Source of the DNA: a virus
Lineage: Duplodnaviria > Heunggongvirae > Uroviricota > Caudoviricetes
Strand: one strand, 5' to 3'
Length of the DNA: 37,503 nt
IMG/VR virus record: IMGVR_UViG_2513237219_000007
Coordinates: 1 to 37,503 of that record
Every line of letters begins with the position of its first letter. Positions within the stretch are counted from its first letter, which is position 1. The notes under the pieces are model-generated. The model made no database searches and was not told the origin of the DNA. It saw only the letters and a program-made list of their open reading frames with translations. The translations under genes and the position numbers were made by a program. Shown here piece after piece: positions 33,743 to 36,063 of this stretch.

Positions 33743-33898
33743 TAACTATATCCAACAATACCCATGGATATCGTACTTACTTATCATAATATATTTTTTA
33801 TATATATGCCTTGAATTATATCTATGCGTATCAAAAAAAGGCTTTAACATGGATGAAAGGCCATTAACAAGTCAATACTTATTTAAACAATCACTTAG

Positions 33899-35093
33899 GG
33901 AAGGTGCGAACAAGTCCCTGATATGAGATCATGTTTGTCATCTGGAGCCATGGAACAGGGTTCATCATGAGTCATCAACTTACCTTCGCCGACAGTGAAT
34001 TCAGCAGTAAGCGCCGTCAGACCAGAAAAGAGATTTTCTTGTCCCGCATGGAGCAGATTCTGCCATGGCAAAACATGGGTGGAAGTCATCGAGCCGTTTT
34101 ACCCCAAGGCTGGTAATGGCCGGCGACCTTATCCGCTGGAAACCATGCTACGCATTCACTGCATGCAGCATTGGTACAACCTGAGCGATGGCGCGATGGA
34201 AGATGCTCTGTACGAAATCGCCTCCATGCGTCTGTTTGCCCGGTTATCCCTGGATAGCGCCTTGCCGGACCGCACCACCATCATGAATTTCCGCCACCTG
34301 CTGGAGCAGCATCAACTGGCCCGCCAATTGTTCAAGACCATCAATCGCTGGCTGGCCGAAGCAGGCGTCATGATGACTCAAGGCACCTTGGTCGATGCCA
34401 CCATCATTGAGGCACCCAGCTCGACCAAGAACAAAGAGCAGCAACGCGATCCGGAGATGCATCAGACCAAGAAAGGCAATCAGTGGCACTTTGGCATGAA
34501 GGCCCACATTGGTGTCGATGCCAAGAGTGGCCTGACCCACAGCCTGGTCACCACCGCGGCCAACGAGCATGACCTCAATCAGCTGGGTAATCTGCTTCAT
34601 GGAGAGGAGCAATTTGTCTCAGCCGATGCCGGCTACCAAGGGGCGCCACAGCGCGAGGAGCTGGCCGAGGTGGATGTGGACTGGCTGATCGCCGAGCGTC
34701 CCGGCAAGGTAAAAACCTTGAAGCAGCATCCGCGCAAGAACAAAACGGCCATCAACATCGAATACATGAAAGCCAGCATCCGGGCCAGGGTGGAGCACCC
34801 GTTTCGCATCATCAAGCGACAGTTCGGCTTCGTGAAAGCCAGATACAAGGGGTTGCTGAAAAACGATAACCAACTGGCGATGTTATTCACGCTGGCCAAC
34901 CTGTTTCGGGCGGACCAAATGATACGTCAGTGGGAGAGATCTCACTAAAAACTGGGGATAACGCCTTAAATGGCGAAGAAACGGTCTAAATAGGCTGATT
35001 CAAGGCATTTACGGGAGAAAAAATCGGCTCAAACATGAAGAAATGAAATGACTGAGTCAGCCGAGAAGAATTTCCCCACTTATTCGCACCTTC
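33899..35093 (+). mobile_element. IS5 insertion sequence (about 1.2 kb) flanked by 4-bp TTAG target-site duplication
   Basis: Terminal inverted repeats GGAAGGTGCGAACAAG (left) and CTTATTCGCACCTTCC (right); TTAG at 33895..33898 and 35094..35097; encodes InsH. Confidence 0.9.
33967..34948 (+). pseudogene. insH: IS5 transposase InsH with an apparent +1 frameshift
   Basis: [37 protein letters not shown] is in one frame and [19 protein letters not shown]... in the next; the sequence reads ACATGGGTGG where canonical IS5 has ACATGGTGG. Confidence 0.8.
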
Positions 35094-36063
35094 CTTAGGA
35101 TTCCTGTATTTTCAGCGATATACTTTGGTATATTTTCCTGGCTTGGACATTCCCCTCAATTTGATAGTGAGGGCTTTAATAATTTCATTGCAATTAGCAA
35201 GCTTCCTATCGCCTTACTTTCTTTGTCCATACCATTTGTTGCTGTCGTAGCAAACATACACCGCACAGTTCAAACAAACCGACAAATTGAGGAAACCAAG
35301 CAAAAGAATCTATCTGATAGCTACTATAGCCATCTAAAGTTCGTTACTGATTATTTCACCAATTTACCTAACAAAACCATTAAACGCGAACGTCATTATG
35401 GTACTAAAGAGATAAGTTATAAAATAAACTACCCAATACATCTATATAGATATATTTTCATAAATAGCTCACCAGAGAAGGGACGGCCTAAAAATACAGA
35501 TAAAGAGTACATACGTGAAGTAAATAATCACTGGGTTGATATACTAAAAAACCTAGAGAAGATACATTCATCTAATCGTGGCTCTCAGTTTGCCGAAGTT
35601 TTAATCCGTCAAATGCAATCTCTTCATTCAATAGAAAAACACTTATCCGAACTTAATCGAATGCTTTGCCTAACTCCCATGGAGTTAAATGAACATGCAA
35701 CTTTATACTTTGATGGATATGAAATGATTACTAACTTCATGTCCAGCATTGAACTTGGCGATACAATTGAAACCTACTTCAAATTTACCATTGATATTCT
35801 TGATATTACCGATAATTTCCTTTCATTCAAGGATGATGGCTCGTCTGGGCAAATCATTATACTAGCAAGATTACTGAAAGATAATAATCCAGCTATCTTT
35901 GATGAAATTGTAACAAACAAAGGGAAGGCTCAACCTTCGTTGACCTACAATGGCGACAGATTGGCGACAGAACATTAAAAATGAGTAAAACGGACAAACA
36001 CAAGATAATACTAACTTACTGATTTTAAACGCAAGTTAATGTTTTTGCTATAGTGAAAATGGT

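Follow-up and report, generated by a model that had tools for sequence, protein, structure and literature searches.

The locus

The DNA considered here is the IMG/VR virus record IMGVR_UViG_2513237219_000007 (Caudoviricetes), analysed over its whole length of 37,503 nucleotides and referred to below as the window. It holds a 186/P2-like prophage in which a copy of the insertion sequence (IS) IS5 interrupts a gene, here named X, that lies between the integrase gene int and the right attachment site attR (Table 1) and encodes a predicted inner-membrane protein. The IS5 is inserted at a TTAG within codon 56 of X and splits the first transmembrane (TM) helix and the start of the second from the remainder of the protein. 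In-silico deletion of 33899..35098, i.e., of IS5 and one TTAG, yields a frame that stays open for 309 codons, starting at ATG 33849, and the product of which is identical to WP_000344474.1, a 'hypothetical protein' of E. coli TW10690 whose gene occupies the same place, between int and a second integrase gene. Intact, uninterrupted X is present in 14 of 5,426 complete E. coli genomes, and ten of these alleles are 99.3-99.9% identical to the reconstructed DNA. A preliminary description of the window, made from the sequence alone, had proposed that removal of the element would restore a protein of about 310 amino acids (aa), that the IS had inactivated a membrane-protein cargo gene, and that intact alleles might be sought elsewhere; the restored frame and the near-identical uninterrupted alleles of other E. 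coli bear this out.

The identification of the element as a full-length IS5 with 16-bp terminal inverted repeats (TIRs) and a TTAG duplication is likewise confirmed by the sequence and by its identity to annotated IS5 copies. The two inverted ends, GGAAGGTGCGAACAAG on the left and CTTATTCGCACCTTCC on the right, match at 15 of 16 positions, uninterrupted X alleles have a single TTAG at the corresponding point, and the element shows 3 differences to the annotated copy of E. coli ECONIH5 and 9 to that of K-12 (99.0-99.7% identity). IS5 prefers YTAR target sites. Two positions in the preliminary description need correction: the element ends at 35094 and not at 35097, and it begins 156 bp past the int stop at 33742, the 107 bp given earlier being the distance of ATG 33849 from int. 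An intact InsH transposase of 326 aa is not encoded in the window, in which an extra G at ~34077 splits the frame; removal of this base, which is missing from the K-12 and ECONIH5 copies, restores the 326 aa. In the assembly GCA_900448865.1 (L015), IS5 occupies the identical site without the extra G and its 326-aa transposase is intact. A comparable case is the portal gene of the window (22680..23718, + strand), which is split into the overlapping open reading frames (ORFs) 22680..23012 and 22987..23718; otherwise 100% identical E. coli genomes are 1 base shorter over 22600..25300 and have the portal gene annotated as intact, and the additional portal base is probably an assembly indel. Because the assembly with the same insertion lacks the extra G and the portal gene also carries an additional base, the transposase frameshift is probably a sequencing or assembly indel as well, and its origin by biological decay is unlikely. 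No IS5-interrupted X allele occurs among the 5,426 complete E. coli genomes.

The window opens with smpB, and the ssrA transfer-messenger RNA (tmRNA) gene is intact at 698..1060 (ARAGORN). The 3' end of ssrA forms one copy of a perfect 45-bp direct repeat, the other copy of which marks the right prophage boundary, and the 35 kb from 1061 to 36108, with genes of P2/186 type, constitute a 186/P2-like prophage integrated in the ssrA 3' end. Beside the attachment site lies a 186-like lysogeny module, with cII on the - strand, cI and int on the + strand and a CI repressor of 186 type; the equivalent prophage region of TW10690 is annotated with CII, Fil, CI and Int. X has a G+C content of 35%, against 51% for the window, and is located between int and attR, in agreement with the preliminary description of an AT-rich gene at the att-proximal cargo position. 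The homologues described below extend this picture: rather than an isolated piece of cargo, X is a gene that recurs, though not in every prophage, in third place in the 186-like cI-int operon.

Table 1. Features of the X locus and of the prophage boundaries in the window.
Feature	Coordinates	Strand	Description and evidence
attL	1016..1060	+	Left 45-bp att copy, 3' end of intact ssrA; ARAGORN tmRNA and repeat match
cI	32060..32698	+	CI repressor gene of 186 type, first of the lysogenic operon; Pfam Phage_CI_repr 8e-33, Phage_CI_C 1e-40
int	32702..33742	+	Tyrosine integrase gene; Pfam Int_N 4e-29, Phage_integrase 3e-25
X, 5' fragment	33732..33898	+	Codons 1-55 and two bases of codon 56, counted from the probable start GTG 33732; RefSeq start ATG 33849
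Target-site duplication, left copy	33895..33898		TTAG; sequence
IS5	33899..35094	+	1196 bp; TIRs 33899..33914 and 35079..35094; transposase ORF 33967..34948 broken by the extra G at ~34077
Target-site duplication, right copy	35095..35098		TTAG; sequence
X, 3' fragment	35099..35978	+	Last base of codon 56 to codon 348 and stop; most of TM2, TM3, stalk helix and C-domain
attR	36064..36108	+	Duplicated ssrA 3' end, right prophage boundary; repeat match
ssrA terminator	36158..36180	+	Terminator-like hairpin and T-run, first terminator-like + strand site downstream of X

Directly after attR, a second tyrosine integrase gene (36232..37503, + strand; Pfam Arm-DNA-bind_3, Phage_int_M and Phage_integrase), presumably CP4-57-like, adjoins the prophage, and the window thus contains tandem integrative elements at ssrA. 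In TW10690 the second integrase gene is followed by genes for a resolvase-type recombinase and a ParB-like protein.

The interrupted allele

What is left of X on either side of the IS5 does not amount to a functional gene. The 5' remnant reads into the element as far as the stop at 33926 and would give a peptide of 64 aa. The 251-aa ORF listed downstream, starting at TTG 35223, is an internal piece of the 3' fragment, and its TTG is an internal Leu codon of X; the one-base inconsistency that had been suspected at 35222..35281 is thus resolved, the frame being continuous. A functional 3' product made by read-out from IS5 was considered and rejected: in our own reading of the sequence there is no in-frame ATG, GTG or TTG between the stop at 35049 and TTG 35223, which itself lies inside TM3. 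Since the 5' remnant is this short and translation of the 3' remnant could begin in frame no earlier than at a TTG inside TM3, the X allele of the window is null. Interpretation of the flanking ORFs as two independent genes was also discarded, as all homologues cover both parts and neither ORF has separate homologues of its own. Because the remaining allele is unchanged relative to intact alleles and shows no other decay, the knockout is recent, and it marks the point at which a single E. coli lineage lost an accessory function of its prophage.

A second IS insertion in the same gene was found in other samples. The 176-aa cluster P0011, with 59 member sequences, is the same X allele cut after ...KNL, and the corresponding contigs read AAAAACCTAG followed directly by GGAAGGTGCGAACAAGTTCC..., which is the end of ISKpn26, another IS5-family element, at a CTAG. 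This junction is seen at contig ends (L017-L020), and its equivalent in the window is at ~35545, the CTAG in ...AAAAACCTAGAGAAG... Two independent IS5-family insertions are thus known in the 1-kb gene X.

Translation start and operon position of X

The frame counted from ATG 33849, the RefSeq start, has the length foreseen in the preliminary description, about 310 aa. The gene itself, however, probably starts at GTG 33732, which gives 348 codons, an 11-nt overlap with the int stop and three TM helices instead of the two originally proposed. Most X homologues are of ~348 aa and start 39 codons upstream of the ATG equivalent to Met40; the PHROG profile phrog_17460 takes in the N-terminal extension; and homologues of only 25-40% identity start 3 nt past the int stop or overlap it by 4 nt. 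Moreover, a strongly hydrophobic stretch of 17 residues precedes Met40 in 93% of 71 distinct sequences. Three TM helices rather than two are probable because homologues, profile, overlap with int and hydrophobicity all support the N-terminal extension, whose ratio of nonsynonymous to synonymous substitution rates (dN/dS) is 0.39 in the one informative pair.

With this start X is probably linked translationally to int. Neither a terminator-like nor a strong promoter-like site was found between the two genes, and X ends within ~90 bp of attR. The leftward lysogenic transcript of phage 186 carries int downstream of cI (PMC7708051). Because int follows cI on that transcript and no terminator-like site separates int from X, we infer that the lysogenic promoter would drive transcription of X along with that of cI and int, and that X would be made in lysogens.

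Architecture of the protein and its family

A homologue 88% identical to X (P0002) has a confident AlphaFold2 model with a predicted local distance difference test (pLDDT) score of 84, which contains helices at residues 12-34, 49-69, 79-88 and 90-143, followed by an alpha/beta domain. The third helix, from ~79/90, is predicted to cross the membrane and to continue to residue 143 as a long stalk. By the distribution of lysine and arginine residues, the N-terminus and loop 2 face outwards, and loop 1 is cytoplasmic, as is all of the protein past TM3. X can therefore be pictured, on the basis of this model, as an inner-membrane protein with its N-terminus out, three TM helices, the last of which would run into a cytoplasmic stalk, and a fast-evolving C-domain of ~200 residues.

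The family to which X belongs is large, with 1,070 clusters at 50% identity matching at E <= 1e-3, 171 of them at E <= 1e-30; P0002 matches phrog_17460 (PHROGs v4) over the full profile, N-terminal extension included (E = 1e-158). Conservation was computed on 146 family representatives at or below 50% identity. The nearly invariant residues all fall within positions 45-136 (...ISKLP..L.LS.P...V.NIHRTIQT..QI.....KN..D...H.K), the membrane core and stalk helix (residues ~40-145) being strongly conserved, and the reconstructed X of the window carries the core motif that follows TM3, HRTIQT..QI..KN..D..H.K (NIHRTVQTNRQIEETKQKNLSDSYYSHLK). No residue of the C-domain is conserved or invariant across the 146 representatives, and its dN/dS of 0.20 compares with 0.03 for the core. 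Conservation of this strength indicates that the TM region is more than an anchor, and the lack of an invariant residue makes an enzymatic role of the C-domain unlikely and gives it rather the look of a binding or sensing module.

Searches for known relatives returned little. Pfam and NCBIfam, run on X and on sets of 30 and 146 members, gave no consistent family and only chance-level matches to DivIC, DctQ and SLATT_6, the last with a value of 0.1 in one member. PADLOC produced weak, scattered matches to differing TM-effector models (2TM, 4TM, PycTM, KwaA) and no convincing defence family. The matches, such as 8e-5 for PDLC00691, 4e-5 for 2TM_IV and 2e-3 for PycTM, do not reach the curated thresholds. 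X was on these grounds rejected as a 2TM effector of CBASS or Pycsar, as E <= 0.01 is reached in only 3 of the 30 and 1-2 of the 146 members, and with differing TM models. Foldseek comparison of the P0002 model with PDB and BFVD recovered no structural relative at E <= 0.001, and a profile search against PDB sequences gave no match to the family. All homologues are named 'hypothetical protein' in the databases, WP_000344474 is mentioned nowhere in the literature library that was searched, and no description of the family was found there.

Occurrence of the family and of other cargo between int and att

The order cII(-)-cI-int-X followed by the prophage end is found in 75 of 80 IMG/VR loci that encode relatives of X, with Int proteins 65-100% and CI proteins 28-99% identical to those of the window. 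Often no further gene lies between X and the predicted prophage end, and all 78 complete copies are open, with 285-403 codons. In one locus (L084) X is placed between cI and int. A Providencia prophage has the same arrangement as the window with an X that is 30% identical. In a P2-like prophage of Morganella morganii (L004, 609..1616), a 25%-identical member is located between the tail-fibre assembly and sheath genes, at what we take to be the P2 Z/fun accessory locus. As this member sits at a tail-gene locus, the family moves between P2 hotspots.

Relatives are also encountered outside this group of prophages. In Vinavirales prophages of Vibrio, a gene for a relative of the conserved core comes immediately after that of the LexA-like repressor, at the genome end. 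Vibrio phage 10N.286.54.F4_PE001 (Vinavirales; L005, 13481..14557) encodes a 358-aa relative with 36% identity over residues 81-176, the TM3/stalk core, directly after a LexA-like repressor gene at the end of its 14.6-kb, PM2-like temperate phage genome. The TM3/stalk module is thus common to tailed and non-tailed temperate phages. One homologue (P0024) is encoded among ordinary chromosomal genes, with no phage genes around it.

Occupancy of the interval between int and att was surveyed in IMG/VR loci with the same Int (L101-L180). Of the 65 loci whose Int shares 87% identity or more with that of the window and whose sequence continues for 1.1 kb or more downstream, X is present in 16 and absent from about three quarters, so that the family, in many divergent alleles, occupies about a quarter of the sampled slots. 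The ssrA attachment site could be located in 44 loci, for which the contents of the interval were tabulated. It is empty, with a length of 142 bp, in 14 of these loci and holds X in 10; in about 12 it is filled by a protein of ~400 aa with no known function and several divergent alleles, in 6 by a protein of ~506 aa, also with no known function, and in 2 by a TM protein of ~220 aa. In one locus (L146) the slot carries a defence gene for a dCTP deaminase, which is encoded on the opposite strand (PADLOC 2e-146). All cargo in this interval has a G+C content of 31-38%, and neither Pfam nor PADLOC gave a match for its uncharacterised families. The interval is therefore a variable locus in which a known defence gene is among the alternative occupants, and a survey lists the region between int and att among the minor hotspots for defence genes in P2-like prophages, with 3% of the P2 defence systems (NAR 2026, PMC13586616). 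The prophage of the window also has a 469-aa ORF on the - strand (23766..25175), flanked by the portal gene and replication gene A, which matches PD-T7-1 (PADLOC PDLC04073, E = 1.3e-196; phrog_8571); by this match the same prophage carries a recognised single-gene defence in the main P2 Q/A hotspot.

Possible functions of X

The function that we favour for X, tentatively and with somewhat less than an even chance of being correct, is that of an anti-phage membrane protein, acting as a single-protein abortive-infection sensor-effector that would protect the lysogen. The proposal is drawn from where X lies, how the protein is built and what else occupies the slot. In such a mechanism, the variable cytoplasmic C-domain would recognise a phage component, upon which oligomers of the conserved TM/stalk module would form and either permeabilise the inner membrane or depolarise it, leading to abortive infection; in the strain of the window this anti-phage function would have been lost through IS5. 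The arguments for it are the lysogen-expressed position, the exchangeable slot that also takes known defence genes, the combination of a conserved membrane module with a variable cytoplasmic domain, and the single-gene organisation. The lysogen-expressed positions seen elsewhere, at the tail-gene locus of Morganella and after the repressor gene in Vibrio, also count in its favour, as do the hotspot status of the int-att interval, the presence of PD-T7-1 in the same prophage and the faint matches to 2TM, 4TM and PycTM effector models. Where known defence systems contain TM proteins, these are usually taken to be suicide effectors (PMC9122126). Recurrent IS insertion in X is compatible with selection against a costly or toxic gene. 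A broader version, in which the whole family represents a widespread, undescribed single-gene anti-phage system that joins a 3-TM pore/stalk fold to a diversifying cytoplasmic sensor, forms the third gene of the cI-int operon and is repeatedly inactivated by IS elements because it is costly, is conceivable, though less likely than not. Several observations weigh against an anti-phage sensor-effector. No defence protein shows homology to X that is both significant and consistent, and the PADLOC matches may mirror hydrophobic composition only; purifying selection prevails in the C-domain, the single comparison made giving no hint of positive selection; the 22 YTAR target sites within this AT-rich gene of 1 kb could equally explain repeated IS insertions; and conservation of the TM core fits a conserved host membrane partner, as in an exclusion mechanism, equally well.

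That last point leads to superinfection exclusion, in which X would block the entry of incoming phage DNA without killing the cell, as does SieA of P22, and would have been abolished by IS5. SieA is a protein of 162-164 aa with three TM helices that blocks injection and exists in sequence types highly divergent among themselves (PMC10883804). X resembles it in being expressed from a prophage, in its inner-membrane location and in its three predicted TM helices, its place in the lysogenic operon suits the role, and very strong conservation of the TM core would be expected if X docks on a conserved membrane component of the host used for DNA entry. However, X is twice the size of SieA and its variable part of ~200 aa is predicted to be cytoplasmic, periplasmic exposure being limited to ~12 N-terminal residues and a 13-residue loop, and we regard exclusion as unlikely, if still worth serious consideration. 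An improbable alternative is that X is a lysogenic-conversion gene outside phage-phage conflict, with a role in stress tolerance, transport, the envelope or virulence. As an AT-rich single-gene moron that is presumably expressed in lysogens and for which PADLOC found no defence homology, X would fit this description, and P0024 shows that a homologue can reside in a chromosomal neighbourhood without phage genes; yet the family is nearly always located in temperate-phage slots whose alternative cargo includes known defence genes, and rapid turnover of the cytoplasmic domain together with allele replacement at one locus is more typical of conflict genes. The chance is slighter still that X serves the life cycle of the prophage itself, either by regulating induction or integration from the membrane, to which it would be tethered, or as a lysis-timing factor, in each case coupled to int. 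Its tight translational coupling to int across divergent phages would agree with such a function, and retention of Met40 in the closer subfamily makes two isoforms conceivable, as in dual-start holins, which is speculative. Against this stands the dispensability of X, given how many prophages with a closely similar Int lack it, some with an empty slot, and its occurrence away from int, in the tail-gene hotspot and after the repressor gene of unrelated phages.

The IS5 insertion itself is routine mobile-element biology. The gene that it disrupts belongs to a large family without annotation, Pfam model or structural relative, located in a lysogen-expressed slot that also houses defence genes, and this abundant, uncharacterised family is a reasonable candidate for testing. 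If X does act as an anti-phage sensor-effector, it would represent a new single-gene system, and the 186-like cI-int operon would carry an immunity gene that can be exchanged. Together with the intact sister alleles, the naturally disrupted strain provides a ready-made isogenic comparison.

Comparison with known systems

The element in X corresponds to IS5 (InsH transposase, IS5 family) in length, in its 16-bp inverted ends and in the 4-bp duplication of YTAR type (TTAG), the copy in the window measuring 1196 bp against the canonical 1195 bp. For the protein, the closest catalogue entry is phrog_17460, which is of unknown function and has neither a name nor literature. The 2TM/4TM effectors of CBASS and Pycsar (SLATT-type, PycTM) are alike in having TM helices with a cytoplasmic helical extension and a presumed membrane-disrupting activity. 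X, however, has neither a cyclase nor any other partner gene beside it, and owns a large C-domain of no recognised fold; in every locus inspected, the neighbours of X are int/att, tail genes or a repressor gene, and no CD-NTase or PycC cyclase is found beside it. With the P2-like int-att slot and other defence hotspots (Rousset et al., 2022, PMC9122126; PMC13586616), X shares the format of an AT-rich single gene at a variable locus, and it differs from the systems catalogued there in having no convincing PADLOC match and in being linked translationally to int. SieA, finally, has no large cytoplasmic domain and comes from another phage group and another locus than X, but the two, compared by description only, have in common a predicted three-TM topology, expression from a prophage and the existence of divergent types.

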